Source: Candidatus Saccharimonadales bacterium
GTDB lineage: Bacteria; Patescibacteriota; Saccharimonadia; Saccharimonadales; JAXHNE01
NCBI GenBank assembly: GCA_041600755.1
Contig: JBFIJL010000004.1
Location: forward strand, 10,612-74,611
DNA length: 64,000 nucleotides
Reading direction: 5' to 3'
Shown: one piece after another, positions 13,781 through 39,364 of the stretch
Layout: each line of letters opens with the position of its first letter
How positions within the stretch are numbered: position 1 is the stretch's first letter
Notes under the pieces: model-generated
Database searches by the model: none
Told to the model about the DNA's origin: nothing
What the model saw: only the letters and a program-made list of their open reading frames with translations
Translations under genes and position numbers: made by a program

Positions 13781-13799
13781 TGGTGGGCTCGGAGGAACT
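13781..13799 (-). repeat. exact 19-nt copy of the 3' end of tRNA-Val (AGUUCCUCCGAGCCCACCA)
   Basis: tggtgggctcggaggaact at 13781-13799 is identical to 13970-13988, the 3' terminus of the intact tRNA-Val. Confidence 0.85.
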
Positions 13800-13969
13800 T
13801 GACCTACGTTCCGCAGGCCCGAAACTTCTGCTATGAAAGCAAGCTTTCAAGTGAAGATTTCCTTGCAAACTGCCGCTGGCAGTTCTCACCCAACCTCCTT
13901 GGGGTCGGTGATTCGACTCACAACTGATCATGCAAAGCAAAAACTCACCGCTTGGGTGAGTTTTTGCTT

Positions 13970-14046
13970 TGGTGGGCTCGGAGGAACTCGAATCCCCGAC
14001 CTCCTCAACGTCAATGAGGCGCTCTAGCCAACTGAGCTACGAGCCC
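13970..14046 (-). tRNA. tRNA-Val (anticodon GAC), CCA encoded
   Basis: Manual cloverleaf: GGGCUCG/CGAGCCC acceptor, GCUC..GAGC D arm, CCUCA-UUGACGU-UGAGG anticodon arm, GGGGA-UUCGAGU-UCCUC T arm, A73-CCA. Confidence 0.9.
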
Positions 14047-14132
14047 TTGCGGTGGGTCTCGTACCACAGTGGTGACCGCCTAGCGCAGACTATTACTTCT
14101 ACGGCGAGCTGTCCCAACTGAGCTACGAGCCC
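14047..14132 (-). pseudogene. degenerate tRNA-Val-like sequence (shares the first 19 nt with tRNA-Val; no foldable T arm)
   Basis: Starts GGGCUCGUAGCUCAGUUGG, identical to tRNA-Val (14114-14132 = 14028-14046), and ends CGAGaCCCACC. The interior offers only a 5-bp UCGCC/GGCGG stem around 22 nt, and 14 nt where the variable loop and T arm should be. Confidence 0.4.
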
Positions 14133-14173
14133 ATATTCAACAGATAAAACTATATCTTATTTCCTCTGTTAGC

Positions 14174-15259
14174 TCAAGAGTTGCGATATTCTTCGGTTAT
14201 GCGGTTTAGGTATCGGATGTTATGGATGCTGGCTAGAGATCCGGCCAGACTTTCACCAATCTTGAACTGATGACGCAAGAAGCCGCGCGTAAAGCCATCG
14301 TTACACGTCGCACAATCACAACCTTCGTCAATTGGGCCAGTATCCTCGGCCAATGTTGCGATAGAAAGATTTAACCGCTTGTCTCCAGCAAGCCAGACCG
14401 CACTATGTCGTGCATTTCGTGTTGGCAATACGCAATCCATCATGTCAATTCCATGCTCGATTGCAAACCGCACATCGACTGGATCGCCAACACCCATCAA
14501 ATAGTGCACTTTGGTTGCGTTATATAATGGCGCCAAAAACTCTAGCATGTCATGCATCTCCTCACGCGTTTCGCCAACTGACAATCCACCAATTGCAACA
14601 CCATCAACATCGCGCGACTGCACAAGCTCAAGGCTTTTTTGCCGCAAATCTTTGTCTAGTCCTCCTTGTGCAATACCAAACAAAAGTGGCCTGGTTTCAT
14701 CCGTCATATCTGCCGTCAACCGCTTGAACTCAGCAATACAGCGGTCTAGCCAGCGATGTGTTCGCTCAAGAGCCTCCACTGTACGCGCGCGGCCAACTTG
14801 ATCAAGACTAACCACATCATCAAAAGCCATAATAATATCACTACCCAGGTCAATCTGAATCTGCATGGACTTCTCTGGGGTGAGCGTAATTAAATCACCA
14901 GTTCGTGGATCTTTGAAAGTTACACCTTCCTCGGTGATTTTGTTCATGTGCGCCAATGAAAACACCTGAAAGCCCCCAGAATCGGTCAGAATTGGACCCT
15001 TCCAGCGCGTAAATTCATGCAATCCGCCAAGAGCTTTTACGGCCTTTTCTCCAGGCTGAAGATGTAAATGATAAGTGTTTCCAAGAATGATTTGCGAGCC
15101 TGCAGCCCGAACCACGTCCGGATGTAGACCCTTTACCGCCCCGCGCGTCCCAACTGGCATGAATACCGGTGTATGCACCTCACCTGCCCGGGTTTTCAGG
15201 GTGCCACTTCGAACGCCATTAACTTCCTTAAGTAGAGTAAACATCTGTTTCATCAACAC
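14174..15259 (-). CDS. tgt: queuine tRNA-ribosyltransferase
   Basis: HTPVFMPVGT, LGNTYHL, DSGGFQ and the Zn site CDCATC...H are all typical Tgt. Confidence 0.92.
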   Translation of the reverse strand: MLMKQMFTLLKEVNGVRSGTLKTRAGEVHTPVFMPVGTRGAVKGLHPDVVRAAGSQIILGNTYHLHLQPGEKAVKALGGLHEFTRWKGPILTDSGGFQVFSLAHMNKITEEGVTFKDPRTGDLITLTPEKSMQIQIDLGSDIIMAFDDVVSLDQVGRARTVEALERTHRWLDRCIAEFKRLTADMTDETRPLLFGIAQGGLDKDLRQKSLELVQSRDVDGVAIGGLSVGETREEMHDMLEFLAPLYNATKVHYLMGVGDPVDVRFAIEHGIDMMDCVLPTRNARHSAVWLAGDKRLNLSIATLAEDTGPIDEGCDCATCNDGFTRGFLRHQFKIGESLAGSLASIHNIRYLNRITEEYRNS

Positions 15260-15521: not shown

Positions 15522-15648
15522 TCATTGCCTCTGGCGCTGTTCCGTCGAGTTAACCACACTTCCCCACAAGTTTTCCACTAGCGTTTTTATCAGGGATATG
15601 TCAATATGTTGACATGGTTTTAAGCATAAGTACGAATTTGGGGGTCGA

Positions 15649-16059
15649 ATGAACTGTCTTTTCTGCGGTGGAGACACCGCCGTCACTAATTCACGTCCAC
15701 AAAAGCGCACAAACAGCGTTTGGCGACGGCGGCAATGCAAAGACTGCAGCACGATATTTACCAGCTCTGAAGCACTTGATCTCTCTGGTAGCATTGTAGT
15801 ATTAACTGACTACTCTAACGCTTCTCAACCCTTCAATCGCGATAAATTGTTCATAAGCATTTATGACAGCCTAAAGCATAGAAAAACAGCCACAAGCGAC
15901 GCTACAGCGCTCACGGACACGATTTTACGTAGGGTTGCGTCCCAAACCACTTCCGCCACCTTAACTACGGCAACGATTAGAACAATTTGCATCCAAACAC
16001 TCGAGAAATTCGATACTGCAGCTAGCGTGCAATACCAAGCCTTCCACCCATTACATTAA
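15649..16059 (+). CDS. nrdR: transcriptional repressor NrdR
   Basis: Zinc ribbon CLFCGG...CKDC followed by an ATP-cone-like region (FNRDKLFISIYDSL). Confidence 0.9.
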   Translation: MNCLFCGGDTAVTNSRPQKRTNSVWRRRQCKDCSTIFTSSEALDLSGSIVVLTDYSNASQPFNRDKLFISIYDSLKHRKTATSDATALTDTILRRVASQTTSATLTTATIRTICIQTLEKFDTAASVQYQAFHPLH

Positions 16060-18301: not shown

Positions 18302-18378
18302 GGGCCCGTGGTGTAGTGGCCTAACATGCCTCCCTGTCACGGAGGAGATCGCCGGTTCAAATCCGGTCGGGCCCGCCA
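18302..18378 (+). tRNA. tRNA-Asp (anticodon GUC), G73, CCA encoded
   Basis: GGGCCCG/CGGGCCC acceptor, CCUCC-CUGUCAC-GGAGG anticodon arm, GCCGG-UUCAAAU-CCGGU T arm. An upstream TTGATT-17-TATGCT promoter with extended TG lies at 18241-18269. Confidence 0.92.
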
Positions 18379-18386
18379 AATCAAGG

Positions 18387-18409
18387 AACCATCGCCAGGA
18401 TGGTTTTTT
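18387..18409 (+). terminator. intrinsic terminator after tRNA-Asp
   Basis: aaccatc/gatggtt stem followed by TTTTTT. Confidence 0.65.
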
Positions 18410-18497
18410 AATTTGACGCTTCTTGAGGAGTTCTGGACCGGATAGCTGCAAAGCGACCCGGGCCAATTGAAAAAATTCTGTCGAACTACCTCTTTGT

Positions 18498-18623
18498 TTA
18501 TAAAGGATTTATTACAATTCCCAATCCGGTCGGGCAATAAACTGTTCCATTTTTATGTCCAGTAGGGTTACCAGATTGACCAGGCTTCCAGGATTTTAGG
18601 TTTTTGTATTTTTTGTTATTCAT
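18498..18623 (-). pseudogene. truncated remnant of a phage/ICE-type small protein (KPGQSGNPxG N-terminal motif)
   Basis: From ATG 18623: MNNKKYKNLKSWKPGQSGNPTGHKNG... I recall this motif from DUF5681-type mobile-element proteins (memory, not a search). Coding sense is lost where the 13-nt tRNA-Asp fragment copy sits (18523-18535). Confidence 0.3.
18523..18535 (+). repeat. 13-nt copy of the tRNA-Asp T-arm/acceptor segment (aatccggtcgggc)
   Basis: Identical to 18360-18372 inside tRNA-Asp. Confidence 0.6.
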
Positions 18624-18695
18624 ATCTAATCTTATTATACTATTTTTACTGAATATCTTGACTATTGTACCTAGATATGTTATGATGTACTTATA

Positions 18696-19562
18696 ATGAA
18701 ACAACGTACTGCTACACCTTACGGAAAAGCAAAAGTACACTCCGCCGAAAGCCACTCACCTGATGCAGAACGGGTATTAGTCGTGCCTGGATACAGCGAG
18801 TCTCTTGCTCATAGTAGAAAATTAGTAGATGCCTTAGCTACAAAAGGCTATGACGCTTCTACATTCAGTCAACCACGCCGTGCTGGCAAAGAAACTAATA
18901 AAGTTGATGACCCTATCCAGCGTCAAGGCAACGTAGTACTTAGCTTGCTAGAAACCACCGCCCCTCAAGGTGAAAAAGTTCACGCTGTAGCACATTCTCT
19001 AGGTTCTGCTGCTGTATTAAGGGCTGCACAGGAAGCACCTGAACGGTTCGCAAGCCTGACACTTATGCAACCCGTAGGTATGGTTGGCGAGCAAAGTTTC
19101 CCCGAATTGCTGGGACGTGTTGGTAAGAAAGTCACCAAGAACCAAGTAGGAGCATTAAGAAGCCAAGACCCTCAAAGACAACCTAAGGCTGGCTACGCAG
19201 CATCTGCTGATACAGAATCAGCTATTCGCTATTCAACCCGTGTTGCCCGTTCACAAGTTGCTGGTAGTGGCGTTCTCGCAAAACAACCTGTACTGGCAGT
19301 ACAAGAAGCAACGGCAGCAGGTAGTTACGATATAGCAGATGATATAGCTAAGGTTAAAGGACTTGGAATCCCTGTAAATATCGTTAAGGCTCATAGCGAC
19401 GAGATGTTTGATACCGACAAAGTTGATATGGGATATGCGGGAATTGCAGACTCTGTGGACTCATACAGTAGTGTTGCTGACCGAACTGCCCGACACGATA
19501 CTTTTTGGTTACAGCCTGAACGAACGGCTGCTATCATTGGACAGCTAATTCAGAAAAACTAA
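18696..19562 (+). CDS. alpha/beta-fold hydrolase
   Basis: VLVVPGYSES, nucleophile elbow AHSLGS, and late D/H candidates (AHSDEMFD, ARHDTFW). Own TTGACT-17-TATGAT promoter at about 18658-18686. Confidence 0.75.
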   Translation: MKQRTATPYGKAKVHSAESHSPDAERVLVVPGYSESLAHSRKLVDALATKGYDASTFSQPRRAGKETNKVDDPIQRQGNVVLSLLETTAPQGEKVHAVAHSLGSAAVLRAAQEAPERFASLTLMQPVGMVGEQSFPELLGRVGKKVTKNQVGALRSQDPQRQPKAGYAASADTESAIRYSTRVARSQVAGSGVLAKQPVLAVQEATAAGSYDIADDIAKVKGLGIPVNIVKAHSDEMFDTDKVDMGYAGIADSVDSYSSVADRTARHDTFWLQPERTAAIIGQLIQKN

Positions 19563-19617
19563 ATTGACTCTTAGTTTCCTGCATTTCTACAAAATAGTTC
19601 CATACCGCTAAAGTAAC

Positions 19618-19660
19618 GGCCCGCCAAACTAAGAAAATCACCCACCATGGTGGTTTTTTT
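19618..19660 (+). repeat. second copy of the tRNA-Asp 3' end (ggcccgccaaa) plus a diverged copy of its terminator
   Basis: 19618-19628 is identical to 18370-18380. The downstream ctaagaaaatcacccaccatggtggtttttttaattt parallels tcaaggaaccatcgccaggatggttttttaattt after the tRNA. Confidence 0.6.
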
Positions 19661-19698
19661 AATTTATAAGACTTGCCTAGAGTCTTGTTTGGCTTATT

Positions 19699-21833: not shown

Positions 21834-21869
21834 ACATACACTATACCATTATTCGCTGAGTACTCTCGC

Positions 21870-22165
21870 CTGGAGCATCTGATTAGCGAAGCAAGGAAAA
21901 CTCAAACAGCCACAGGCTGTTTTCGCCTTTCGGTTCGACTCATGAAAGAACAAAAGCCGACAATACGTCTGTACTATCAGCTTTTGGTGCCCCGGGTAAG
22001 AGTCGACTAAAGATGCTCACTCGAATGCTAAAGCATCTCGTTCGGCCAAGCAAGGAAAACTCAAACAGCCACAGGCTGTTTTCGCCTTTCGGTTCGACTC
22101 ATGAAAGAACAAAAGCCGACAATACGTCTGTACTATCAGCTTTTGGTGCCCCGGGTAAGAGTCGA
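21870..22165. repeat. tandem direct repeat (unit 159 bp; 117 bp identical) that includes the last 22 nt of tRNA-Arg
   Basis: 21890-22006 equals 22049-22165 (gcaaggaaaactcaaacagcc...tggtgccccgggtaagagtcga). Similarity continues, diverged, about 20 nt further left in both copies. Confidence 0.85.
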
Positions 22166-22219
22166 ACCTACAACCTTCTCCTTAGGACGGAGCTGCTCTA
22201 TCCATTGAGCTACCGAGGC
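22144..22219 (-). tRNA. tRNA-Arg (anticodon CCU), CCA encoded
   Basis: GCCUCGG/CCGGGGC acceptor, GCUC-AAUGGAUA-GAGC D arm, anticodon loop GUCCUAA, GUAGG-UUCGACU-CUUAC T arm, A73-CCA. G32 and a G27-A43 mismatch are slightly atypical. Confidence 0.85.
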
Positions 22220-22354
22220 ATGATTGTGAACACTTTAAGTTTACTTACTTTTATAGCTCAATGATAGAGCTGCTCATTCTTTATTTTGCAACGAGGTTGC
22301 GCCACTTTCGCTACCGAGGCAAATGTGGCTGCATTTCTGCAGCCACAAAAATAA

Positions 22355-22885: not shown

Positions 22886-22961
22886 GAATTTTCCTTGTTT
22901 ACGTTAACGACATTCTAACAGATAGCGCACGCTATTTGCTAGTGTGTCGTACAATATAAGC

Positions 22962-23885
22962 ATGAGCAACCCATCATCGTTTGCAAAACTAAAAACTGAC
23001 TATCTCGAACATATGGAAATTGAGCAAAACCGCTCAAATAAAACAATTGAAAATTATGACCACTATTTGAATCGTCTTATCGATTTTGCTGGAGATATTT
23101 CAGTGTCAGATATCAACCAAGAACTTATACGCAAATGGAGATTGTGGCTCAATAGACTCGGCACCAACACAAGCGATGAACTTAAAAAGTCTACTCAAAA
23201 TTACCATCTCATTGCTCTGCGCGGCTTTTTGAAATATTGCGCAAAACGAGACATCACCGTCATGCAGCCTGATAAAATTGAGCTTGCACGGGTTGTGCGC
23301 AAGCAAGTAACCTTTCTAACCCCAGAAGAAGTAGAAAGACTTCTTAGTCAGGCAGATTTAAGTAAATTATCAGGGGTCAGAGATCGCGCCATTCTTGAAC
23401 TACTATTTAGTTCAGGCTTGCGTGTTTCGGAGCTTGTTGGACTGGATAGAGACCACGTAAATCTCAAACGCCGTGAGTTCATGGTTCGCGGAAAGGGCCA
23501 AAAGGATCGGCCAATATTTATTAGCGAGTCTGCTGCCCGATGGATTGAGGTGTACTTAGAAAAAAGACAAGATACGGCCAAGCCGTTGTTCATTAGATAC
23601 TCTGGCAGTAAAAAAGTAGATACCAGCGGAAACTTTCATCGCCTCACGGCCCGCAGTATCCAGCGCATGGTAAAGCGCTACGGTTTACTTGCTGGCATAA
23701 CCAAACATGTTAGCCCACACACACTACGACACTCGTTTGCCACAGACCTACTTATGAACGGAGCTGATTTGCGCAGCGTGCAAGCGATGCTTGGCCACAG
23801 CAACATTGCCACCACGCAAATTTATACACACGTCACCGACCCACATCTCAAATCTGTTCACGAAAAATTTCACAAATCCCAATAG
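22962..23885 (+). CDS. tyrosine recombinase, XerC/XerD family
   Basis: N-terminal core-binding domain (IENYDHYLNRL), catalytic R...HxxR...Y (LRHSFATDLL, GHSNIATTQIYTHV). Start set at ATG 22962. Confidence 0.85.
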   Translation: MSNPSSFAKLKTDYLEHMEIEQNRSNKTIENYDHYLNRLIDFAGDISVSDINQELIRKWRLWLNRLGTNTSDELKKSTQNYHLIALRGFLKYCAKRDITVMQPDKIELARVVRKQVTFLTPEEVERLLSQADLSKLSGVRDRAILELLFSSGLRVSELVGLDRDHVNLKRREFMVRGKGQKDRPIFISESAARWIEVYLEKRQDTAKPLFIRYSGSKKVDTSGNFHRLTARSIQRMVKRYGLLAGITKHVSPHTLRHSFATDLLMNGADLRSVQAMLGHSNIATTQIYTHVTDPHLKSVHEKFHKSQ

Positions 23886-24918: not shown

Positions 24919-24920
24919 AA

Positions 24921-28225: not shown

Positions 28226-29440
28226 CTAAATGAAGCTCTTGCCTGCCAAGCCGTACACCGGCAATAGCACAGCTGCGACGATAATAAATGCGAAAATTCC
28301 GAGCACTACCATCAATACTGGCTCGATAATGGTAGAGATGGTTTTTATCTGTTCATCGACTTCCTTTTCAAAGTAATCAGCGGTCTTTTCAAGCATTTGT
28401 TCCACCGAACCTGACTGCTCGCCAATGCGCAGCATGTTCGGTACAAGTTCAAGGAAGTTTGGATCATCCTGAATTGAATCAGCCAACGAAGTACCACCCC
28501 TCACCTTGCTGATAGCACGGTGAATTGATTCCTCGAGATGAATATTATTAATAGCATTAGAGGTGATTTCCAGCACCTGAATCAGCGGCACACCACTGGC
28601 GACCAGCGTTGTACCCGTGCGAGCAAATCGAGCCATATACAGCTTCATGAACAGTGGTCCAATTGGCCATGCCTTCATTTTTAACTTGTCGGACAGGCGT
28701 TTCCCGCCAATTGTCTGAAGCCACTTGAAACCAAAAAATCCAAAGAGCGCCAGCAAGATCAAGAATACCCACCAAAAATTTACTAAGAAATTCGAAACAG
28801 CGAGCAACAGGCGCGTCACGAACGGCAATTCACCGCCCCCTATGCCATCATATAGCACTTCAACCTGCGGCAGCACGCTGACTAACATAAACCCAACCAC
28901 CGCACCCATCACCAACAATACGATGATCGGATAAACCATTGCGCCACGAACCTTGCTAATAATTTCGGCATCTTTTTCTTGCTGCAGTGCAATTCTCTCT
29001 AGAGATTTGTCGAGCGTACCTGATGTTTCACCAGCGGCAATTAAACTTACAAATATCTGGTTAAAGACTTTCGGATGTTTAGACAGTGCGACAGAAAAGG
29101 CGGTTCCTGCCTCGACATTACTAATAACATCATTCACCACAATTTTAAGTGGCTTATTTTGTGTTTGATTGCCGACATTTCGCAAGCTCTGTACCAATGG
29201 CAAGCCGGCGTTAATCAACGTAGAAAGTTGGCGAGAAAATAAGATCTTGTCCTTGATCTTCACCTTATTGAAAAATCCGCCAATAGCACCACTGCCAGCA
29301 TCGAGCGATTTTATACTAAGTGGCGACAGTCCCTGAGTATTAATCAATTTGGCGGCGGCTTGTTCGTTTTCTGCCTGAACTTCGGCTTTTATTTTCTTGC
29401 CGGTTGCAGAATCACGAGCAATGTATTGGAACGTTAGCAT
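28226..29440 (-). CDS. pilC: type IV pilus platform protein (GspF/PilC family)
   Basis: Two T2SS-F repeats (FSRQLSTLINAGLPLVQSL / FARTGTTLVASGVPLIQVL) and three TM segments. Confidence 0.88.
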   Translation of the reverse strand: MLTFQYIARDSATGKKIKAEVQAENEQAAAKLINTQGLSPLSIKSLDAGSGAIGGFFNKVKIKDKILFSRQLSTLINAGLPLVQSLRNVGNQTQNKPLKIVVNDVISNVEAGTAFSVALSKHPKVFNQIFVSLIAAGETSGTLDKSLERIALQQEKDAEIISKVRGAMVYPIIVLLVMGAVVGFMLVSVLPQVEVLYDGIGGGELPFVTRLLLAVSNFLVNFWWVFLILLALFGFFGFKWLQTIGGKRLSDKLKMKAWPIGPLFMKLYMARFARTGTTLVASGVPLIQVLEITSNAINNIHLEESIHRAISKVRGGTSLADSIQDDPNFLELVPNMLRIGEQSGSVEQMLEKTADYFEKEVDEQIKTISTIIEPVLMVVLGIFAFIIVAAVLLPVYGLAGKSFI

Positions 29441-29442
29441 GC

Positions 29443-30516
29443 CTAGCCTCTCATTAACCGATCTAGCTCATCAATGTCTACTGCGACATTCCGTGCTTCT
29501 TCATAAGTTATAGTTCCGGCGTGGATTAAGTTTACTAGTGTTTTGTCCATAGACTGCATACCGAATTCCGCTCCAGTTTGGATAACGGCTTCTAGTTGGT
29601 GCGTCTTGCCTTCGCGGATAATATTGCGCACAGCTGGTGTTGCGACAAGAATCTCGGCAGCTGCTACTCGCCCGCCACCAATGGTAGGTACGAGTCTCTG
29701 AGAACAAATTGCCATCAAAATGTTAGAAAGCTGCGATCTAATTTGTGGCTGTTGGTGCGGAGGAAATACATCAACCATACGATCAATACTCTGTGACGCC
29801 GAGTTGGTGTGCAGTGTTGCAAAAACCAAGTGACCGGTTTCTGCGATTGTGATCGCCGCGGCGATAGTTTCAAGGTCACGCATTTCGCCGATCAATACAA
29901 CATCAGGGTCCTGGCGCAAACTACTACGAAGTGCAGCCGAGAATGAATAGGTATCGTAGTGCACCTCTCGCTGCACAATGACAGATTTATTTGAGGTATG
30001 TGTAAATTCAATTGGATCCTCAATAGTCACAATGTGCTCTGCTCGCTCATTATTGATCTTGTGTATGAGTGCTGCCAGTGTTGTTGATTTACCCGAACCA
30101 GTAGGTCCAGTTACCAGAACAAGACCACGTGGATACTCGGCAAATTTATTTGCAATTTGCGGCAAACCTAGTTGTTCAATTGTGAGTAGTTCGTTAGGAA
30201 TGAGTCTAAGCGCTGCAGCTAGGTTTCCGCGCTCATGGAAGGCGTTTACTCGGAACCGACCAAGATCACCAAATGCGAAACTGAAATCAAACTCCTTGTC
30301 CTTGAGAAGTATTTGCTTCTGGTCTTCGTCAAGAATTGCAAAAATGAGAGTCTCAACAGTTTCTTCACTGAGTGGATCTGCACCTGTCACTGGTGTTAAT
30401 GCACCGTCTATTCGCAACATTGGCGGCAAGCCTACCTGTAAGTGAAGGTCGGATGACTTCTTTTTAATAACTTCCTCGAGTAATACTTCGATTCGTGGTG
30501 CTGCTTTTGCTGTCAT
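29443..30516 (-). CDS. pilT: twitching-motility retraction ATPase PilT
   Basis: SDLHLQVG, Walker A GPTGSGKSTT, IVTIEDPIE, REALRQDPDV-like LRQDPDVVLIGEMRD, and the AHxxxGH-like TGHLVFATLHT. Confidence 0.9.
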   Translation of the reverse strand: MTAKAAPRIEVLLEEVIKKKSSDLHLQVGLPPMLRIDGALTPVTGADPLSEETVETLIFAILDEDQKQILLKDKEFDFSFAFGDLGRFRVNAFHERGNLAAALRLIPNELLTIEQLGLPQIANKFAEYPRGLVLVTGPTGSGKSTTLAALIHKINNERAEHIVTIEDPIEFTHTSNKSVIVQREVHYDTYSFSAALRSSLRQDPDVVLIGEMRDLETIAAAITIAETGHLVFATLHTNSASQSIDRMVDVFPPHQQPQIRSQLSNILMAICSQRLVPTIGGGRVAAAEILVATPAVRNIIREGKTHQLEAVIQTGAEFGMQSMDKTLVNLIHAGTITYEEARNVAVDIDELDRLMRG

Positions 30517-30531
30517 ATCTATTCCCCTCCC

Positions 30532-32328
30532 TTATGCACTGTTAGCGCTAGCCACGCGGTTAACTTCTGCGACTGTTGTTTGTCCTGCAAGCGCCTTCAG
30601 GTAACCATCTTGGCGCATTGTAAGCATTCCCTGCTTTTGTGCCATTTCTTGAATCTCGGAACTTGTTGAACGCTTGAGAATCAAATCTTGAATCTCATTG
30701 GTCACCGAGAATACCTCGTACAGTCCCATTCGACCCTTGTAGCCACCTGGTGTATTTGGACTATCGATGCCCTTGGTTAAAGTATAAGCGTTTTGACCAC
30801 TTAGAGGCAAGTCATTGTAGCCGATGTCCTCACCGACCCGCGCCTGATCCTCAACTTTCTGTGGCAAGAATCCACCCAATGCCTCTTTTATTGACGCGGT
30901 CTCAACTGCATTAGATTGATAGGTCTCACGGTCTTCGCCGATACGACGCACTAAACGCTGACCGATCACCGTGTGAACCGTGCTTGCTATAAGGAACGGC
31001 TCGATGCCCATATCTAGTAAGCGAGGCAAGATTCCAGCTGCCGAGTTGGTGTGAAGTGTCGAGAACACCAAGTGGCCAGTAAGTGCGGCCTGTACGGCAA
31101 GAGTGGCTGTTTCTTTGTCTCTAATTTCACCAACCATTACAACATCAGGGTCCTGGCGCAAGATTGAGCGAAGCCCGGAAGCAAAGGTTAACCCTACTTC
31201 GGCGTTAACTTGTATCTGATTAATGCCATCCATTTTGTATTCAACTGGATCCTCGAGCGTTACGATGTTAACCGTGTCATCTTTTATCTCCTGCAGCAGA
31301 GCATACAAAGATGTCGACTTACCTGATCCGGTCGGACCTGAAGTTAGAATCATGCCGTTAGACTGCTTTAATCCTTCACGTATAGTTCGAAGCGCTCTTC
31401 CGCGATAACCCATTTCTTCCAAATGCAAGCTTGTTCCAGACTTATCAAGTAAACGAATAACTACCTGCTCGCCCCAAACCACTGGTGATATAGCTATACG
31501 AAGATCGATGTCTTTTTCGGCTACGTGGATAGTAAACTGACCATCCTGCGGAATACGATGTTCGTCAATTTTAAGATTAGACAAAATTTTAATACGCGAC
31601 ACCAAGGCTGGTTCAGTAGACTTTGGAAGCTTCATTATCTCGCGAAGCACACCGTCAATTCGAGCGCGAATTTTCAGTTCATTTTCAAGTGGTTCAATAT
31701 GAATATCGCTTGCTCGGTTCTTTGCTGCATACTCTAAAATCGTTGACAATGCCTTGCTGATTGGTGAATCCTGAACAATGGTTTTGATAGCGGCTTTTTT
31801 GTCGTTTGTCTTTCGTTTGGCTGGGCTAGCATCTTCTGTTGCCTGATTTTCACGATGCATAGAATCAGCAACGCTCATATCAATCTCTACCTGATATTGT
31901 TTGAGTACTGATCGAACCCCTTCTTCACTCGCTGAATACACTTTCAATGGGCGCCCAATCTTATTAGATAGAAAGTCTACTGCTTGTACGTTGTCGGCAT
32001 CTAACATAGCTACAACTAGCCGATTCTGCATCTCTCCCAGTGGGACAGCCATATACTGCTGCGCAATGTCCTTAGGAAGCAGTTTCAATATTTCGGGATT
32101 AACCCGAGCAACGCTAAGATTCACGTAGGGAACGTTATTCACCTGCGCCACGATCTTTGTCAGATCTTCATTGTCTACATGTTTTTCGTTCAATAGAAGT
32201 GAAAATAGAGGAGTAGCTGTATCGGCCGACTTCTTCTTCAAGTCCTCCAGTGCGCTTGACTCGATAATTTTTTCTTCTACAAGTTTCTTTTCAACCTGCT
32301 TCTGGACAGATGTTGAGAGTACACTCAT
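30532..32328 (-). CDS. pilB: type IV pilus assembly ATPase PilB (GspE family)
   Basis: N-terminal T2SS-E N domains, SDIHIEP, Walker A GPTGSGKSTS, LRQDPDVVMVGEIRD. Confidence 0.9.
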   Translation of the reverse strand: MSVLSTSVQKQVEKKLVEEKIIESSALEDLKKKSADTATPLFSLLLNEKHVDNEDLTKIVAQVNNVPYVNLSVARVNPEILKLLPKDIAQQYMAVPLGEMQNRLVVAMLDADNVQAVDFLSNKIGRPLKVYSASEEGVRSVLKQYQVEIDMSVADSMHRENQATEDASPAKRKTNDKKAAIKTIVQDSPISKALSTILEYAAKNRASDIHIEPLENELKIRARIDGVLREIMKLPKSTEPALVSRIKILSNLKIDEHRIPQDGQFTIHVAEKDIDLRIAISPVVWGEQVVIRLLDKSGTSLHLEEMGYRGRALRTIREGLKQSNGMILTSGPTGSGKSTSLYALLQEIKDDTVNIVTLEDPVEYKMDGINQIQVNAEVGLTFASGLRSILRQDPDVVMVGEIRDKETATLAVQAALTGHLVFSTLHTNSAAGILPRLLDMGIEPFLIASTVHTVIGQRLVRRIGEDRETYQSNAVETASIKEALGGFLPQKVEDQARVGEDIGYNDLPLSGQNAYTLTKGIDSPNTPGGYKGRMGLYEVFSVTNEIQDLILKRSTSSEIQEMAQKQGMLTMRQDGYLKALAGQTTVAEVNRVASANSA

Positions 32329-32339
32329 GCATCAACCAC

Positions 32340-32591
32340 TTAGTTGGTTCCCGTGCTGAACGGATTGTCGTTTGTACCCTCACCAATACGTATAATTTGC
32401 GTAGGGTTGTTAGACTCAGTATTGAAGTATCTAGGGTCGGGGATTATGAATTCTGAAGTAATCGGTTTCACGACTTCAGCAGACGCGGTTAGTGAATCAC
32501 TAGGAGTTATAATGTATTTTGAAATTAGCAGTGAAAAAACACCAGCAAATATGGTGACAACTACTATGAGTGTGATATCTTTTTGCTTCAC
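32340..32591 (-). CDS. small membrane-anchored pilus-operon protein (83 aa), hypothetical
   Basis: One N-terminal TM helix (ITLIVVVTIFAGVFSLLI). Overlaps the upstream gene by 4 nt. Confidence 0.4.
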   Translation of the reverse strand: MKQKDITLIVVVTIFAGVFSLLISKYIITPSDSLTASAEVVKPITSEFIIPDPRYFNTESNNPTQIIRIGEGTNDNPFSTGTN

Positions 32592-33259
32592 TTGACTTCC
32601 TCCAGAGTTATGTCCACTCCACTCTCCGGTAGATAGTACGTTTTGGCATCCACCGTAACAGCTACACTGCTGTCGTTCGAACTTGACAGTGAAATCACTC
32701 TTACATTAAATGGGCGAATTGATTTTTGGAGCTTATCGAACAATAATTTTGAGCCATCAAAGTTTGTCTCAACGCTAAATGAAAATGGAATTTCGACAGG
32801 AGAGGAGGCGTCAACTGAAGCACTCTGCGTCACCTGCTCATCGGTTCCATTTATCGAGCTAACGGCAAAACCTTGGTCGTTCAAAATCTTGTACACGCTT
32901 GTAGCTAGGGCCGGAAAATCGTATTTACTTGGAAGTGCATCAAGAACAATCCTCGCATTGTCGCCGTCTCGTTCTCCTTCGCCAACCGGATTGCCGCCTA
33001 TGGCATTTTCTGGACTTGAAACAAATGCTTGATAAGAGGCCACAAGTGTGTCGGTAGCTGAAATATTGGCTTTTAGTTGACTAAGAGCTACAGACTTCTT
33101 GGTAATTACACGCGACTGAAAGCCGCGCTGATCCCATAAAGCTTTTGAAGCAACAAGTGAGAACGTCACTAATACAGCCGCAATAGATACGGCAAGTATT
33201 ACTGTCGAGTTTGCCTTATCAACAAGCGTTCGTTTTGTAGACGGAGTATTCAATTTCAT
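32588..33259 (-). CDS. PilO-like pilus alignment protein
   Basis: Single TM helix (VILAVSIAAVLVTFSLVA), then a coiled region and a periplasmic-type domain. Sits after pilN with a 4-nt overlap. Confidence 0.45.
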   Translation of the reverse strand: MKLNTPSTKRTLVDKANSTVILAVSIAAVLVTFSLVASKALWDQRGFQSRVITKKSVALSQLKANISATDTLVASYQAFVSSPENAIGGNPVGEGERDGDNARIVLDALPSKYDFPALATSVYKILNDQGFAVSSINGTDEQVTQSASVDASSPVEIPFSFSVETNFDGSKLLFDKLQKSIRPFNVRVISLSSSNDSSVAVTVDAKTYYLPESGVDITLEEVK

Positions 33260-33939
33260 AGTGCGCCTTCCGATTGCTCTTGTTTTTTGAATAAATTCTC
33301 TGATGGTTTCTCTGTCTCAGATCGAGTCGATACAATTTTCGGAACCGTTAGTGTGATCTCGGTCTGTGAATCAAAAATAAATGCATCAAAGGAAAGGTCT
33401 ATGTCGTAGGTCGAGTTCTCTCTGTCGGTGCCAAAACTTGTCAATACGACATCTTTAAATGCTGGAGAATCGGATCCTGAAGAGTCTTCATAAGTAGTGA
33501 ACTTGAGTGTGTCAACAAACTTATTAATGGTTGCAAGTGAGTCCGCTGATCCAGAAAAATTAATCGTAAGTAGTTCAAAATCAACTACGACATTTGATAT
33601 TGATGTGTTTACGGGAACGATTTGAGGTAAGTAAGTATAGAGTCGCGTCACAACTGGTTTTGAGTCATGCAATGCCCCGACATTATTAAGTTGATTCTGG
33701 ATTGTTAAAATTTTGTTGAGATCTTCGATATCATTCAAACGTGTCTTAGCGACATTTATATCATCGGAAAGATTCTCGATATGCTGTTTTTGGAACATGT
33801 TTACAGTCAAAAAAAGCAGCGCAAACAATGCAATTGATGCCGCCGATACCGTGCCAGCAATAAGAATTACATTTCGCTTGGCTCGCCGAGCTTTGATGTA
33901 CTCCATCTTGATGTCCGGAAGTAAATTAAACTGGATCAT
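33256..33939 (-). CDS. pilN: PilN-like pilus assembly protein
   Basis: MIQFNLLPD...RRAKRN followed by a TM helix, the typical PilN N-terminus. Confidence 0.65.
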   Translation of the reverse strand: MIQFNLLPDIKMEYIKARRAKRNVILIAGTVSAASIALFALLFLTVNMFQKQHIENLSDDINVAKTRLNDIEDLNKILTIQNQLNNVGALHDSKPVVTRLYTYLPQIVPVNTSISNVVVDFELLTINFSGSADSLATINKFVDTLKFTTYEDSSGSDSPAFKDVVLTSFGTDRENSTYDIDLSFDAFIFDSQTEITLTVPKIVSTRSETEKPSENLFKKQEQSEGAL

Positions 33940-34976
33940 TCTGCTCGCTCCGCAAGCCCTGCTGCAACGCCGAAATGATTCGAAACAGCAAGTAGCTCAT
34001 TTTGACGATCTGCTGGAAATGCCACATTGCGCCACGCACTACCAATTTCTACATTCAGTCCTGTTTTGTTTGCTACGTATAGTGGAAACTCCGGCAGTGC
34101 TGATGCTCCCCCTGTGACGATAATCCGATCAATCGCCGATCCAACATAGCGGGCAGTAAAGAATTTGACCGATTTTTCTATCTCTCCAACTAGCGTATCA
34201 ACTGTACTTATGATTGCTTGATGAATCTGACCTTCGAGCTTGTCTTTTGACAATCCGAATTTAAACACAAACTGTTCAGCTTGAGCCTGGTCAATCGATA
34301 AATTCTGCATTGCACTCCTAACAATCGCCTCTGAGCCAGTCGGAATCGATCGGGTAAGTCGTGGTGCGCCGTTCATAACAATTACGATGTCGGTGCTCTT
34401 ACTGCCAATATCAATTACCATTTGCGGTAGCGTTGCCTCTGAAGCAATCATCCCCCGAGCTAGCGCAATATTGTCTGGCTCAAAAGATATGACATTAAGG
34501 CCTATTGATTCAAGTGCATCCAGCTTAGTTTCAACATATTCATTCGGCACGCTTGTAAGCAAAATCTCAACCTTGGTCTTGTCGGTTGGTGAGTCTCCAA
34601 GTAGCGCCCAGTCAATCTTTGATTGGTCAAGCGGTGTTGGGATGAGTGAATCTGCTTGATAGCGAATCGTCTTGTCGAGTTCTGCTGGCGATAATCTGTC
34701 AATGTCTACGACCGTCGTGAACACACGCTGCGATGGGATACCAACGGCCACGTTTCTGGTAACTATCCGCGCCTCTGTTATGAGATCGTGAACAATCCCA
34801 GCCAATTTCTGTTGATCGGCTTTAGCATCACTCATAGCTATGTTGCCGTCAATCTCGACAGAGCCATACTTTACGAGCGATTTTACAGCACCCGTTCCAC
34901 GCAGCTGAACAAATCTGACAGCGGTTGTGCCGATGTCTAGACCAATAAAATCACTTACCCCACTCAGTAGACTCAT
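33936..34976 (-). CDS. pilM: type IV pilus assembly protein PilM (actin-like ATPase fold)
   Basis: IGLDIGTTAVRFVQL, DIGSKSTDIVI, and IIVTGGASALPEF. Confidence 0.85.
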   Translation of the reverse strand: MSLLSGVSDFIGLDIGTTAVRFVQLRGTGAVKSLVKYGSVEIDGNIAMSDAKADQQKLAGIVHDLITEARIVTRNVAVGIPSQRVFTTVVDIDRLSPAELDKTIRYQADSLIPTPLDQSKIDWALLGDSPTDKTKVEILLTSVPNEYVETKLDALESIGLNVISFEPDNIALARGMIASEATLPQMVIDIGSKSTDIVIVMNGAPRLTRSIPTGSEAIVRSAMQNLSIDQAQAEQFVFKFGLSKDKLEGQIHQAIISTVDTLVGEIEKSVKFFTARYVGSAIDRIIVTGGASALPEFPLYVANKTGLNVEIGSAWRNVAFPADRQNELLAVSNHFGVAAGLAERAE

Positions 34977-37478: not shown

Positions 37479-38022
37479 CTAGCACTCCTCCTGATTCAAA
37501 TACTGGGTAATCTCCCGCTTGATTCTCGAGAAATTCAACAGTAGGCTCGAAATATTCTGGCAATGCAAAAACGTCGGCAAGAACATTGCTATAGCTCTGT
37601 TGATTTTCTTGAAGGTCTGTAAAGATACTCAAGAGTTCTCGCGATTTAACCGGGTCGCTCATATTGATATAGTACGTCAATGCCACAAAGACACAGTTTG
37701 GATCACTTCCATAGTCGGGAATTGATTCAATCTCTCTCACCTGTTCTTCTAGTTCAACAACTTTCGAATAGTCAAGATTGCTTTTAGCCGACTCTAGTAG
37801 CTCCGAGCTACACTTTGAAATATCTACTTGAGCTTGCTCATTTTTATCTAGACTCTTCGATCGCCATAAAACCCCAGCTATCAGTATCAACATTGTAGCG
37901 AACATGCAAAGTAGCAATACGGTTCGGCCTACTCTGTATTTCGTCCAGCGAGATGTTGCAGAATTCTCGCTAACAATTACGTCGTCGTCTTTAGCAACTT
38001 TGGCTTTTTTTGTGTGAAACAT
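37462..38022 (-). CDS. single-pass membrane protein (186 aa), first gene of the pilus operon, unknown function
   Basis: TM helix TVLLLCMFATMLILIAGVLW followed by an acidic, helical ectodomain. Overlaps the 818-aa gene by 17 nt. Confidence 0.55.
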   Translation of the reverse strand: MFHTKKAKVAKDDDVIVSENSATSRWTKYRVGRTVLLLCMFATMLILIAGVLWRSKSLDKNEQAQVDISKCSSELLESAKSNLDYSKVVELEEQVREIESIPDYGSDPNCVFVALTYYINMSDPVKSRELLSIFTDLQENQQSYSNVLADVFALPEYFEPTVEFLENQAGDYPVFESGGVLDDSIQ

Positions 38023-38147
38023 CTCGCTCTTTCTGCTTATGCATTACAGTATAGCTGATTGTGTCGCACTATAAAATGTTCAAAATTTTTTTGAAAGGCG
38101 CGTTTTTTGCGCTCATCACATTAACTTCTCTGGTATAGTGGACAGGA

Positions 38148-39233
38148 ATGAGTTTATCTATAGGAATTGTTGGACTGCCGAACGTTGGTAAATCGACGCT
38201 ATTTAACGCGCTGACTGATAGTAGTATCCTGGCGGCAAATTATCCATTTGCCACAATTGAACCAAATACCGGAACCGTACCAGTACCAGACGAACGCTTA
38301 AAGAAATTATCTGAAATGTACGACAACGCACCAATTAAGCCGGCAACCGTAGACTTTGTGGACATCGCAGGGCTAGTAGCGGGCGCCAGTAAAGGTGAAG
38401 GTCTGGGCAACCAATTTCTCAGTCACATTCGAGCCTGCAATGCAATCCTACAAGTTGTTCGCGGCTTTGAAGATGGCGATATTATTCGCAGCGACAGTTC
38501 ACGCGACCCCGCACACGATATAGACGTCATCAAGACCGAACTCGTGCTAGCCGACTTGCAAACAGTCACCAACCGTAAAACAAAGTTTGCCAAAGAAGCC
38601 CGCTCGAACCCAAAGCTAAAACCAGCTGCCGATACAATCGAAGCACTTGAATTACACCTCAACAATGGCAAGGCAGTATGGGAGGATTCAGCGCTTTTAG
38701 ATGATTATCAGGAACATGTTAGTGACCTGCAACTAATGACGACCAAGCCGATTTTGTATTTATTCAACATTGACGATACTGCACTCGGAAACGACGAGCA
38801 CAAACAAAAGCTTGCGAGCTTAGTAGCCCCTGCCCCGTCCGTATTTGTAAGCGCCAAGCTAGAAGACGAGCTGCGCGGGCTCGACCCAAGCGATCAAGCA
38901 GAATTCTTAGAAAGCTATGGGCAAAAAGAATCAGGACTAGTACAAGTTATTCACGCTGCTTATGACCTTCTCGGCCTTCAGAGCTATATCACCTCGGGCG
39001 GCACGGAAGTTCGAGCGTGGACAATTAAAAAGGGCGCAACAGCACCTCAGGCTGCCGGTGTAATCCATGGAGATTTTGAACGCGGGTTTATTGCTGCTCA
39101 GATTGTTTCATTCGAAGACTTGATCGCATCAGGCTCAGAATCTGAAGCCAGGAGCAAAGGCAAGATGCGCACCGAAGGAAAAACCTACGTCATGCAGCCT
39201 GACGACATCGTAGAATTTAAGTTTAATACTTAA
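38148..39233 (+). CDS. ychF: ribosome-binding ATPase YchF
   Basis: IGIVGLPNVGKST, DIAGLV, and a C-terminal TGS-like domain (RAWTIKKGATAPQAAGVIHGDFERGFI). Confidence 0.92.
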   Translation: MSLSIGIVGLPNVGKSTLFNALTDSSILAANYPFATIEPNTGTVPVPDERLKKLSEMYDNAPIKPATVDFVDIAGLVAGASKGEGLGNQFLSHIRACNAILQVVRGFEDGDIIRSDSSRDPAHDIDVIKTELVLADLQTVTNRKTKFAKEARSNPKLKPAADTIEALELHLNNGKAVWEDSALLDDYQEHVSDLQLMTTKPILYLFNIDDTALGNDEHKQKLASLVAPAPSVFVSAKLEDELRGLDPSDQAEFLESYGQKESGLVQVIHAAYDLLGLQSYITSGGTEVRAWTIKKGATAPQAAGVIHGDFERGFIAAQIVSFEDLIASGSESEARSKGKMRTEGKTYVMQPDDIVEFKFNT

Positions 39234-39364
39234 CGTGCCTCGGGAAGAGTAGCCCGACGAACGAATTTATTTCGTTCCCGGCGCGATGAGAAACCCGCTT
39301 GGGGGTGTCTCATGAGTGTGTCATGCAGCCCGACGACGTAGTTGAATTTAAGTTTAATACATAG
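39189..39364 (+). repeat. 45-bp direct repeat of the ychF 3' end flanking an 86-bp hairpin-rich insert
   Basis: 39189-39233 and 39320-39364 match at 39/45 positions. Both encode VMQPDD(I/V)VEFKFNT followed by a stop. Confidence 0.8.

Follow-up and report, generated by a model that had tools for sequence, protein, structure and literature searches.

Re-copied 3′ ends downstream of three tRNA genes and ychF in Saccharibacteria: candidate miniature mobile modules

Gene ends and inserts in the window

The window, the whole 64,000-nucleotide stretch of DNA that was analysed, contains four genes whose 3′ ends recur a short distance downstream, which corresponds to 4 of its 68 gene ends. These genes are tRNA-Val(gac) (13970..14046, minus strand; ARAGORN and Rfam), tRNA-Asp(gtc) (18302..18378, plus strand; ARAGORN), tRNA-Arg(cct) (22144..22219, minus strand; ARAGORN) and ychF (38148..39233, plus strand; TIGR00092 at 1.4e-126), and all of them are intact. 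The re-copies had been reported in an initial annotation, and each was found at the place given there. The final 50 nt of every feature (63 open reading frames, four tRNAs and rnpB) were aligned to the 400 nt downstream, and the scores were compared with those of 2680 shuffles. The score was 29 for ychF, 22 for Arg, 19 for Val and 13 for Asp, and the next-highest feature reached 10; the shuffled scores had a 99.9th percentile of 11 and a maximum of 13. The re-copied ends lie well above shuffled-sequence expectation and a chance origin is excluded, with the Asp 13-mer being borderline when taken alone because the shuffle maximum is also 13. An assembly artefact was rejected for the window cases, since all four are internal to the contig. 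The inserts enclosed by the repeats are 87-190 bp long and contain no open reading frame; the new sequence per module amounts to 87-170 bp, with the re-copied gene end coming in addition.

At the Val locus, the CCA end of the tRNA is followed immediately by a palindromic terminator hairpin identified from the sequence (T1; 13933..13969, minus strand), which was brought in with the insert and forms the centre of a mirror symmetry. Next come A′ (13903..13921, minus strand), in which the variable loop and T-arm of tRNA-Val are repeated imperfectly in inverted orientation (GTGAGTCGAATCACCGACC; in-register mirror match of 20/36), and the type A core (13800..13902, minus strand; nhmmer E=6e-40), which consists of three conserved hairpins. 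The displaced copy of the last 19 nt of the tRNA, from T-loop position 58 to CCA, lies 189 bp away (13781..13799, minus strand) and precedes T2 (13745..13780, minus strand; terminator scan), the original tRNA-Val terminator with its downstream context. In L001, the closest species, the site is empty: the identical tRNA is followed directly by sequence that is homologous to the T2 region and is found here after the displaced copy. T1 is missing from that empty site, and the insert is unrelated both to the sequence past T2 and to the L001 flank. On the other side of the tRNA lies a segment that is conserved in L001 (14047..14132, minus strand). It contains a copy of the first 19 nt of the tRNA (14114-14132), about 66 nt of other sequence and an acceptor-like end, CGAGaCCCACC, and it is situated behind a predicted promoter at 14149-14177.

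At ychF, the last 44-45 nt of the gene (39189-39233) are the resident version of the repeat, and the displaced original 3′ end, 131 bp away at 89% identity (39320..39364, plus strand), encodes VMQPDDVVEFKFNT followed by a stop. The displaced end abuts the stop of a convergent phosphoribosyltransferase gene. The two copies disagree at 5 positions out of 44 nt, and it is the displaced one that has the clade consensus DDVVEF. Three related loci have empty sites (L081, L164 and L165) in which the ychF stop abuts or overlaps the convergent phosphoribosyltransferase stop, as the displaced copy does here, and in L166 a homologous insert occupies the identical ychF position. The insert itself (39234..39319, plus strand) is unrelated to the phosphoribosyltransferase gene. 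It is a copy of a dispersed structured motif, termed class-2, with the layout CGGGAAGAGUAGCC, hairpin, GGCGCGAUGAGAAACC, loop, GGUGUCUCAU. Ten copies of this motif were found in 2 Mb, eight of them besides the ychF-site inserts of the window and L166. The second copy in the window lies beside the rnpB 3′ end without a flanking repeat (5397..5464, plus strand), and class-2 copies occur in 5′ UTR-like positions behind their own promoters. Kinship between the ychF insert and the tRNA-linked cores was considered and rejected, as the best alignment (to L125) had an uncorrected p of 0.035 and was not significant.

Because related species have empty sites, the Val and ychF structures are insertions relative to related genomes. 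The initial annotation had held that the displaced copy keeps the original downstream context in three cases, and the empty sites confirm this for these two. Simple tandem duplication was rejected, since the insert sequence differs from the native downstream sequence at both Val and ychF.

The Asp locus is more complex. Its insert (18379..18522, plus strand) comprises T1 (18379-18414), an A′-like GGACCGGAT (18435-18443) and a decayed core, and it is followed by 13 nt that form the first half of a displaced tRNA-Asp 3′ end (AATCCGGTCGGGC; 18523..18535, plus strand). The second half (GGCCCGCCA), together with a terminator T2 that resembles T1, lies at 19618..19665 (plus strand). Here 9-11 nt of the tRNA end recur (19618-19626), and the T2 segment gives a 48-nt alignment to 18370-18415 (p<0.0005). 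The two fragments join as one displaced end, AATCCGGTCGGGCCCGCCA, interrupted by a 1082-bp segment (18536..19617, plus strand) with 3 bp of overlap. The segment carries its own promoter and an alpha/beta-hydrolase gene (18696-19562). No homologue of this separate segment was found in 166 other loci, and it is the sole cargo at the tRNA inserts of the window.

At the Arg locus, the last 22 nt of the tRNA lie inside a 121-nt repeat (21886-22006 and 22045-22165) with a period of 159, and the locus is made up of two inserts in tandem. E1 (type B; 21985..22143, minus strand) consists of T1 (22110-22143), A′ (22091-22103), a core (22007-22090) whose helices covary and the displaced 22-nt copy (21985-22006). 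The older of the two tandem units is E2 (21834..21984, minus strand), whose first 95 nt agree with E1 at 99% identity; its 3′ part is diverged, and it no longer has the tRNA copy. This second unit is the only local tandem copy among the window inserts. Sequence comparison also revealed a segment on the 5′ side of tRNA-Arg (22220..22320, minus strand), in which 11 nt from the 5′ end of the tRNA are repeated (22310-22320) and the D-arm recurs in inverted orientation (22254-22273).

The same arrangement at other Saccharibacteria tRNAs

A survey was performed on the tgt neighbourhoods of 127 Saccharibacteria loci, with 324 tRNAs in 1.4 Mb. About 24 of the 324 tRNAs have a downstream copy of their 3′ end at a distance of 64-575 nt. 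These copies begin at T-loop positions 54-61 and end exactly at CCA, the repeats measure 13-44 nt and stop at the gene end, and the insert sizes cluster at 80-200 nt. No 3′-end copies were found upstream or at kilobase scale among these tRNAs, nor was a larger element found at them in the 127 loci. Neither collection contained close relatives, the top Tgt identity being 78% in the genomes and 71% in the metagenomes, and the control loci from outside Saccharibacteria hold just two tRNAs, which makes them uninformative on phylum specificity. One apparent case, tRNA-Gly of L004, was excluded as an assembly artefact, its copy coming after a run of N.

The geometry had been read in the initial annotation as that of insertion into gene 3′ ends, and this is borne out by the empty sites at Val and ychF and by the tRNA identity block that runs from the T-loop to CCA. 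Its main inference, a history of repeated invasion and deletion, fares less well; it would make the inserts scars of ordinary large genomic islands or prophages that had integrated at these genes and were afterwards deleted down to their att-flanking arms. Small genomes are biased towards deletion, which counts for such scars. Kilobase-scale displaced copies, however, number zero in the survey, and the small, tightly clustered inserts prove to be conserved families with covarying hairpins and compensatory changes instead of random remnants. The geometry does match that of tDNA islands (PMC4383910). Viral contigs were scanned with four core or motif patterns (two for types A and B, one for Asp-2, one for class-2), and the scans yielded no related attP-like sequence, only two chance hits inside coding regions or nothing; a phage origin was rejected on this result. 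The scar explanation is highly improbable. The evidence is most in keeping with the alternative that the initial annotation had offered, namely very small integrating or structured elements of a class not previously recognised.

A common plan underlies the tRNA inserts: the tRNA end (A), a terminator of their own (T1), an inverted T-arm copy (A′), a conserved hairpin core, the displaced A and the original T2. No significant pairwise sequence similarity was found among the four window inserts, and to that extent the initial statement that no single family is present was correct. It does not hold for architecture, which the three tRNA inserts have in common, nor for the individual inserts at Val, Arg and ychF, each of which belongs to a family that recurs elsewhere. 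Both the Val core and the Arg core are members of families confined, in the tgt neighbourhoods sampled, to the vicinity of tRNAs, where they stand in tRNA sense beside varied tRNA species of genomes that are far apart. Profiles gave 25 hits in 2.0 Mb, each of them separated by 9-234 nt from a tRNA and sharing its strand, and every blastn hit to the tRNA-linked cores is likewise beside a tRNA. Homologous cores were found at at least six tRNA species. The type A core of the window has homologues at tRNA-Pro of L032 and L026, the E1 core and an insert beside tRNA-Pro of L132 are 93% identical over 61 nt although the Tgt proteins are only 55% identical, and within L006 the Arg and Val cores are 83% identical over 101 nt. 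The matches between genomes have abrupt mosaic borders. The window Asp insert was not detected by any family profile, even at relaxed thresholds; its membership in the Asp families was rejected, and this counts against the module interpretation.

Tandem arrays occur in L145, where two different insert types are arranged in tandem at one tRNA, in L156 and at the window Arg locus. The L042 locus is also a tandem repeat; its tandem runs to the contig end and was treated with caution. These arrangements bear on the possibility that local replication errors, such as fold-back priming at a terminator hairpin, template switching or tandem duplication, created the structures with no element involved. 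The tandem repeats at Arg and L042 are what such errors could leave, as are the resemblance of T1 to T2 at Val, at Asp and in L145 and the long palindrome built from T1, A′ and the tRNA end, which is in mirror register in several of the inserts. Against this, the cores are foreign to the empty-site sequence and are homologous between unrelated loci and genomes, and an origin by replication errors is judged very unlikely.

The cores are conserved as folded structures. The type A core has 32 pairs that are 99% paired, with 13 compensatory pairs, and 0 of 500 shuffles scored as high; the class-2 motif has 24 pairs that are 97.6% paired, with 8 compensatory pairs. The hairpins carry compensatory changes and G-U pairs on the tRNA-sense or gene-sense strand, and folding is better for the sense than for the antisense strand (p=0.0025). 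Since the helices are kept by compensatory changes with sense-strand G-U pairs, the sequence is constrained as a folded single strand, which would most simply be an RNA. A′ and A are imperfect inverted repeats, A being also a direct repeat of the gene end. Two partners are available to A′, the tRNA end on the far side of T1 and the displaced copy. Its predicted pairing is stronger with the displaced copy of its own insert than with those of other tRNA species (-18.0 vs -15.1 kcal/mol, p=0.01).

At the gathering score, Rfam 15 matched only tRNAs and RNase P in the window, and when the regions at Val, Arg, ychF, L145 and L118 were scanned by E-value, the only hits were weak and at chance level. 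At least five candidate structured RNA families with no Rfam match are represented: types A and B, Asp-1, Asp-2 and the class-2 motif. A hammerhead or other ribozyme, suggested by the motifs CUGAUGA and GAUGAG, was rejected because these motifs are not conserved between homologues and have no Rfam match. An antisense RNA or opposite-strand pseudo-tRNA was also rejected, given that no tRNA-like Rfam match was obtained and that the folding and the G-U pairs favour the tRNA-sense strand.

If the cores are RNAs, they might be vertically inherited functional ncRNA genes or tRNA-trailer elements, whose tRNA-like ends would aid processing or stability through RNase P and CCA mimicry, and whose patchiness would reflect repeated precise loss between the direct repeats. 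Deletion between direct repeats of 19-44 bp would indeed restore exact empty sites. The covariation and sense-strand G-U pairs, together with the 5′ UTR-like placement of the class-2 copies, agree with this explanation. So do the displaced copies, which mostly track the allele of the resident tRNA, and the tRNA-Asp-linked inserts, which are widespread at one orthologous site (an intact copy in 13 of 47, with further ones decayed). However, a single core occurs at different tRNAs, and the 93% nucleotide identity despite 55% Tgt identity and the mosaic borders do not suit vertical descent; neither do the heterologous tandem arrays. Terminators separate the core from its tRNA, and no promoter was seen in the stretch that leads from T1 to the cores. 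The Val insert is present in the window and missing from the closest species; overall, presence across the clade is patchy, not invariant and ancient. We regard this vertical explanation as improbable. tRNA-like RNAs processed by RNase P, such as mascRNA, are similarly structured and end in T-stem, acceptor and CCA, and an A′-A closing helix is conceivable here. The inserts differ from them in having no conserved acceptor helix and a terminator that separates them from the tRNA, and in being polymorphic and located at different tRNAs.

Possible routes of movement

Taken together, the four loci are probably insertion sites of small mobile structured modules and not relics of islands. No insert contains a recombinase. 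The sole recombinase among the open reading frames at 11-41 kb is a housekeeping Xer-type tyrosine recombinase (22944..23885, plus strand; PF00589 at 4.6e-46; XerD/XerC/XerA models), which lies outside all inserts. Near-full-length matches of 66-81% identity were found in 20 further Saccharibacteria loci and partial matches in five more, all at comparable distances from tgt. Because none carries a recombinase, the modules would have to move in trans, either by host recombination after uptake or by an integrase acting in trans.

Under the second of these routes the inserts would be miniature non-autonomous integrative elements, moved by an unlinked tyrosine integrase or by the host Xer, with the crossover in the tRNA T-loop or the ychF end and with an A′/A duplex that might mimic the target. 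The classical attL/attR geometry, with its identity block from the T-loop to CCA (PMC4383910), points in this direction, as do the precise empty sites, the two insert types in tandem at one L145 tRNA, the identical ychF position hit in two non-sister genomes, the conserved Xer-type recombinase and the cognate A′/A pairing. On the other hand, no integrase lies in or beside any insert, Xer works at dif and not at tRNAs, and the spread of homologous cores over so many tRNA species would demand many specificity changes from ordinary integrases. Nor would a crossover in the T-loop be expected to yield displaced copies that represent a foreign allele where the entire tRNA has been exchanged, and the viral-contig scans supplied no attP-like relative. 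Such a mechanism is unlikely.

A further explanation is that the core and the tRNA-matching 3′ segment form a guide RNA (a scaffold with a 16-25-nt guide) of an RNA-guided transposon or nuclease that homes to tRNAs, in the manner of type V-K CRISPR-associated transposons (CASTs) or TnpB. V-K CASTs use truncated repeat-spacer units matching tRNAs (10.1101/2021.02.06.429022), and like their homing units the inserts have a short tRNA-matching segment, here identical to the tRNA 3′ end, next to a structured scaffold and downstream of that tRNA. The inserts differ in that no Cas12k, Tns (TnsB/C), TniQ, TnpB or IscB gene was found by Pfam and NCBIfam among the open reading frames at 11-41 kb, some of which have no family match. 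In addition, the start of the copy varies within the T-loop while its end is exactly CCA, the empty site identifies the copy as the displaced gene end, and a guide would target the occupied site too. This explanation is extremely unlikely.

For the mobile modules favoured here, our comparative data are best accommodated by DNA uptake followed by host homologous or homology-facilitated recombination, a route to which we assign slightly less than an even chance. A module would enter by recombination within the last 16-44 bp of a very conserved gene and would supply its own version of the gene end and, for tRNAs, a terminator; the gene would remain intact, and the original end would be left over as the displaced copy. 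The tRNA body would serve as one homology arm and the re-copied end as the other, so that such a "pre-armed knock-in" could enter any genome sharing that tRNA. Natural competence, with recombination of the DNA taken up, is a property of Saccharibacteria (PMC10633639), the window contains a competence-type cluster for a type IV pilus, and homology-facilitated illegitimate recombination is among the established routes (PMC3240628). In L006_Val and L156_Arg the displaced copy represents a different allele from that of the resident tRNA, and these cases, with the 5 differences in 44 nt at ychF, argue for recombination rather than simple target duplication. Several points weigh against uptake. The lack of a visible promoter between T1 and the cores means that their expression as RNA is hypothetical. 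A right-hand arm of 16-25 nt is shorter than the usual efficient RecA substrates, and the first creation of the duplication, the switch to a new tRNA species and the origin of A′ are left unaccounted for. Displaced copies usually match the resident allele, which gene conversion or true target duplication would also explain.

Relation to known elements and implications

Comparison with known systems suggests partial likenesses. In tDNA islands and prophages (Islander, PMC4383910), element-borne sequence also regenerates the gene and leaves a direct displaced 3′ fragment at the far end, with an identity block from the T-loop and tandem accretion at one tRNA. The inserts differ from them in measuring 87-190 bp instead of several kb with cargo, in having no open reading frame or integrase, and in possessing a covarying hairpin core, an inverted target T-arm and homologous cores at many tRNA species. 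With CIMEs (cis-mobilizable elements) and MITE-like elements they share att-like repeats or putative imperfect inverted ends, the lack of mobility genes and functions supplied in trans; like a CIME, they have attL/attR-like flanks and no recombination genes. Yet no parental autonomous element is known or was found in the 127 tgt-neighbourhood loci, and, unlike MITEs, the tRNA-linked families are not dispersed and have repeats of variable length (13-44 nt) that end at the gene end, with no target-site duplication of fixed length.

IMEX such as CTX phage use a folded single-stranded attP hairpin that is recombined by host XerCD at dif. The inserts resemble them in having no recombinase of their own, in forming tandem arrays and in the presence of a conserved host Xer, and their inverted target-like sequences may fold into a target-resembling duplex. 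Both the folding and a role of Xer are putative here, the targets are tRNA genes and the ychF end rather than dif, and the size is about 150 nt rather than that of phage genomes. Casposons enter tRNA genes and a gene for a translation GTPase at their 3′ ends and have long direct target repeats and imperfect inverted ends, all of which the inserts recall. Casposons are several kb long and encode Cas1 and a polymerase, and no such element is apparent here.

A full-text literature search returned no description of such inserts, and the modules look like an undescribed kind of miniature mobile module. A bolder, tentative reading, which we consider rather doubtful, is that they form a new mobile class of geneless structured modules of about 100-170 nt, specific for conserved gene ends and free of any dedicated enzyme, each equipped with a gene end as replacement and with its target's sequence in inverted orientation. 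Members of this putative class might enter as pre-armed knock-ins through natural transformation and host recombination, or they might fold as single strands into a likeness of the target on which a host recombinase would act. The core, once folded, could function as an RNA that takes advantage of the signals for tRNA expression and processing.

The genomes of Saccharibacteria and other members of the candidate phyla radiation, or CPR, are tiny and are thought to be nearly free of mobile DNA. If the proposed interpretation is true, geneless inserts that ride the most conserved sequences, tRNA ends and ychF, and leave them intact would represent a minimal form of genetic parasitism or symbiosis and a natural analogue of the engineered knock-in cassette. 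Saccharibacteria are now transformable, so that the hypothesis is directly testable, and the inserts offer a practical means of tracing recent exchange of DNA among lineages that have not been cultivated.

Re-copied gene ends in the window

The window belongs to a Saccharibacteria (TM7) genome with a G+C content of about 45%. Its proteins include Tgt, ThrS, NrdR, Ndk and YchF, and the best matches to Tgt were from Saccharimonadales genomes assembled from metagenomes, with identities of no more than 78%. ARAGORN and Rfam identified four tRNAs, Val(gac), Thr(cgt), Asp(gtc) and Arg(cct), together with the RNase P RNA. The initial annotation had listed four genes (tRNA-Val, tRNA-Asp, tRNA-Arg and ychF) whose 3′ ends are re-copied downstream, and every one of these repeats was recovered at its position. 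When the 3′-terminal 50 nt of each of the window's 68 gene-like features were aligned to the 400 nt downstream, the same four genes alone stood out (ychF 29, tRNA-Arg 22, tRNA-Val 19 and tRNA-Asp 13, with a next best score of 10) over a background of 2680 shuffles that had a 99.9th percentile of 11 and a maximum of 13. Taken alone, the tRNA-Asp 13-mer is borderline relative to the shuffles.

The same test applied to 5′ ends revealed upstream re-copies of tRNA-Val (first 19 nt) and tRNA-Arg (first 11 nt). The segment that carries the tRNA-Val copy (14047-14132, minus strand) is conserved in L001, the locus from the closest available species, and may be a decayed tRNA copy because it terminates in the acceptor-like CGAGaCCCACC. 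On the 5′ side of tRNA-Arg (22220-22320, minus strand), the 11-nt copy is accompanied by an inverted copy of the D-arm. Two tandem 104-nt units, each beginning with a copy of the 5′-terminal 18 nt of tRNA-Thr, were observed at 181-388 of another locus, L097.

Comparison with empty sites in relatives demonstrates insertion directly at two of the four loci, Val and ychF. The tRNA-Val gene of L001 is identical to that of the window and runs straight into the terminator and flanking sequence found behind the displaced copy in the window; positions 13781-13969 are therefore a 189-bp insertion. In three loci whose YchF is 80-83% identical (L081, L164 and L165), the ychF stop codon abuts or overlaps that of a convergent phosphoribosyltransferase gene, and the displaced ychF copy in the window lies in exactly this context. 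The displaced copy encodes DDVVEF, which is the consensus of the relatives, while the resident copy encodes DDIVEF.

Architecture and cores of the tRNA-linked inserts

Read in the tRNA sense, the order of elements is the tRNA with its CCA, a terminator brought by the insert (T1), an inverted tRNA copy (A′), a hairpin core, a direct tRNA copy (A), and the original terminator (T2). T1 is a palindromic terminator hairpin after the CCA, A′ is an imperfect inverted copy of the variable loop and T-arm that in some cases extends to the acceptor strand and CCA, and A spans the T-loop to the CCA. The tRNA end, T1 and A′ together make a palindrome of about 100 nt, and A′ mirrors the tRNA in register in the window Val insert, the Asp inserts of L132 and L140, and the Arg insert of L039. 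Folding energies indicate that A′ is also able to pair with the displaced copy, at −18.0 kcal/mol for cognate pairs compared to −15.1 kcal/mol across tRNA species (p=0.01). Stems of the form CACC...GGTG are common to Saccharibacteria tRNA terminators (the window, L001, L013, L018, L036 and others). In insert-borne terminators, the right arm nearly always has TGG or TGC directly after it, so that pairing continues onto the tRNA CCA.

The initial annotation found no sequence similarity among the four window inserts, and pairwise comparison agreed, none being significant. Relatives were found elsewhere for the Val and Arg cores and for the ychF insert. Profile searches for four families over 2.0 Mb gave 25 hits, all of which lie 9-234 nt from a tRNA and on the tRNA strand. 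For the window Val core (type A), matching cores were found next to tRNA-Pro in L032 and L026. In L026, the type A core comes after a tRNA-Pro 5′ half and upstream of the intact tRNA-Pro gene; at 15618-15802, this half, which runs from the acceptor strand to the anticodon loop and has a TATAAT box in front of it, is joined to the core. Next come CCGTGAGG, corresponding to the 3′ strand of the anticodon stem, and the intact gene. The arrangement looks like a tRNA copy with a type A core inserted in its anticodon loop. The window Arg core (type B) shares 93% identity over 61 nt with a tRNA-Pro core in L132, whose Tgt is just 55% identical to that of the window, and has further relatives in L006 (at Arg and Val), L156 (at Arg) and L042 (at Val). 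Borders of similarity between inserts are abrupt: the core is nearly identical, while A′, A and T1 differ.

The cores appear to be under constraint to fold as a single strand, which would most simply be RNA. For type A, 99% of the cells at 32 pairs are paired with 13 compensatory pairs, a result reached by 0 of 500 shuffles, and just 34-49% are paired when the partners are slid by 1-3 columns; an invariant G-U pair lies on the tRNA-sense strand. In type B, 9 pairs are compensatory and two G-U pairs are invariant; covariation is also seen in the central hairpin of the Asp-2 family. Over a set of 33 cores, folding was more stable for the sense strand than for the antisense strand, by 3.2 kcal/mol (p=0.0025). 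Rfam 15 gave no match to insert cores or motifs and no promoter was predicted between T1 and the cores, which are best described as candidate RNAs. The second rival explanation for the inserts is that they are functional trailer RNAs, vertically inherited and repeatedly lost. Type A cores contain the highly conserved 9-mer GCAAGGAAA (window 13861-13869) and type B cores the highly conserved 9-mer UUUCCUUGC (window 22047-22055). Since these are perfectly complementary, type A and type B RNAs might pair in trans.

The window Asp insert keeps the architecture of the other tRNA inserts and is recognized by none of the family profiles; it is probably a decayed family member. Fragments of 13 nt and 9 nt, which when joined give the exact tRNA-Asp 3′ end, flank a 1082-bp segment (18536-19617) and overlap by 3 bp (GGC). 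The segment contains its own predicted promoter and an alpha/beta-hydrolase gene with no homologue in 166 other loci. T1 and T2 of this locus are related (p<0.0005). We infer one small insert, the displaced copy of which was later split by the hydrolase segment.

The ychF insert and a dispersed structured motif

A homologous 87-nt insert is present at the same ychF position in L166 (79% YchF identity), followed by that locus's own displaced ychF end. A DUF4260 gene (L166 2713-3078) begins on the stop codon of this displaced end and fills the gap up to the phosphoribosyltransferase gene; neither the window nor L081 or L165 has it. Resident and displaced ychF copies differ at 11-17% of positions.

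A profile built from the two ychF inserts (class-2) found eight further copies, none at ychF and none with flanking repeats. Two occupy the 5′ UTR of a winged-helix gene that follows miaA (L118 14906-14984 and L034 10287-10365), three are between divergent nrdR and tgt (L145 5099-5178, L156 9424-9501 and L135 1752-1828), one is beside rnpB in the window (5397-5464, plus strand), and those in L007 and L028 are weak hits. These eight copies imply that what entered the ychF end was a copy of a dispersed structured motif. The motif has two hairpins and conserved elements in the order CGGRARAGCAGCC, hairpin, GGCGCGAUGAGAAACC, loop, GGUGUCUCAUAAGGCG, is not in Rfam, and has no significant similarity to the tRNA-linked cores. 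At its 24 pairs, 97.6% of cells are paired with 8 compensatory pairs (4 of 500 shuffles as high). The motif may represent a riboswitch-like leader or else a small RNA gene.

Frequency and proposed movement of the inserts

In 127 Saccharibacteria loci around tgt (1.4 Mb), about 24 of 324 tRNAs have a downstream copy of at least their last 14 nt (Asp 13/47, Arg 3/31, Val 3/99, Pro 2/31, Met 1/3 and Thr 1/54). All copies lie 64-575 nt downstream in direct orientation, and no displaced end at kilobase scale was found among these tRNAs. The repeated invasion and deletion suggested initially is not upheld, as copies so close are not stumps of large islands. Two units occur in tandem at several sites (L145, L156 and window Arg). 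A 35-nt copy of a tRNA-Gly end (L004 2784-2940) sits after a run of N and was left out because it is probably a scaffolding artefact.

No mobility function was found inside the inserts. The main rival explanation is that a site-specific recombinase moves them in trans, and the only recombinase among the ORFs scanned in 11-41 kb of the window is an Xer-type tyrosine recombinase (22944-23885, plus strand), outside the inserts. It is conserved near full length in 20 other loci (66-81% identity), with partial matches in 5 more, and is therefore considered a housekeeping gene. Its conservation across Saccharibacteria exceeds that of Tgt (55-78%), and the archaeal XerA model is the sole model for which it scores above the cutoff.

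In Saccharibacteria, which are naturally competent, incoming DNA is integrated by homologous recombination (PMC10633639). A competence-type type IV pilus cluster in the window (PilM, two T2SSE ATPases, PilC, prepilin peptidase and pilins; 23899-34976) is consistent with a role in taking up DNA or in attaching to a host cell. At L006 Val and L156 Arg, the displaced end is another tRNA allele than the resident gene, which is replaced whole. Together with the divergence of the ychF copies, these foreign alleles argue against a plain T-loop crossover or a plain target duplication. The mechanism that we prefer, by inference, is a knock-in: with the tRNA body on one side and another copy of the tRNA end on the other, an insert would in effect be a cassette that brings its own homology arms. 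Once taken up, the cassette could be knocked into any genome having that tRNA and lost again via the direct repeats, and the universally conserved T-loop would offer microhomology for a jump to a new tRNA species.

The geometry of the inserts is that known for elements integrating into tRNA genes (PMC4383910). In contrast to such elements, the inserts described here are about 150 nt long and ORF-less, and have covarying cores and an inverted copy of the target. Literature searches returned no description of inserts with this combination, and there is a real chance that they constitute a new class.
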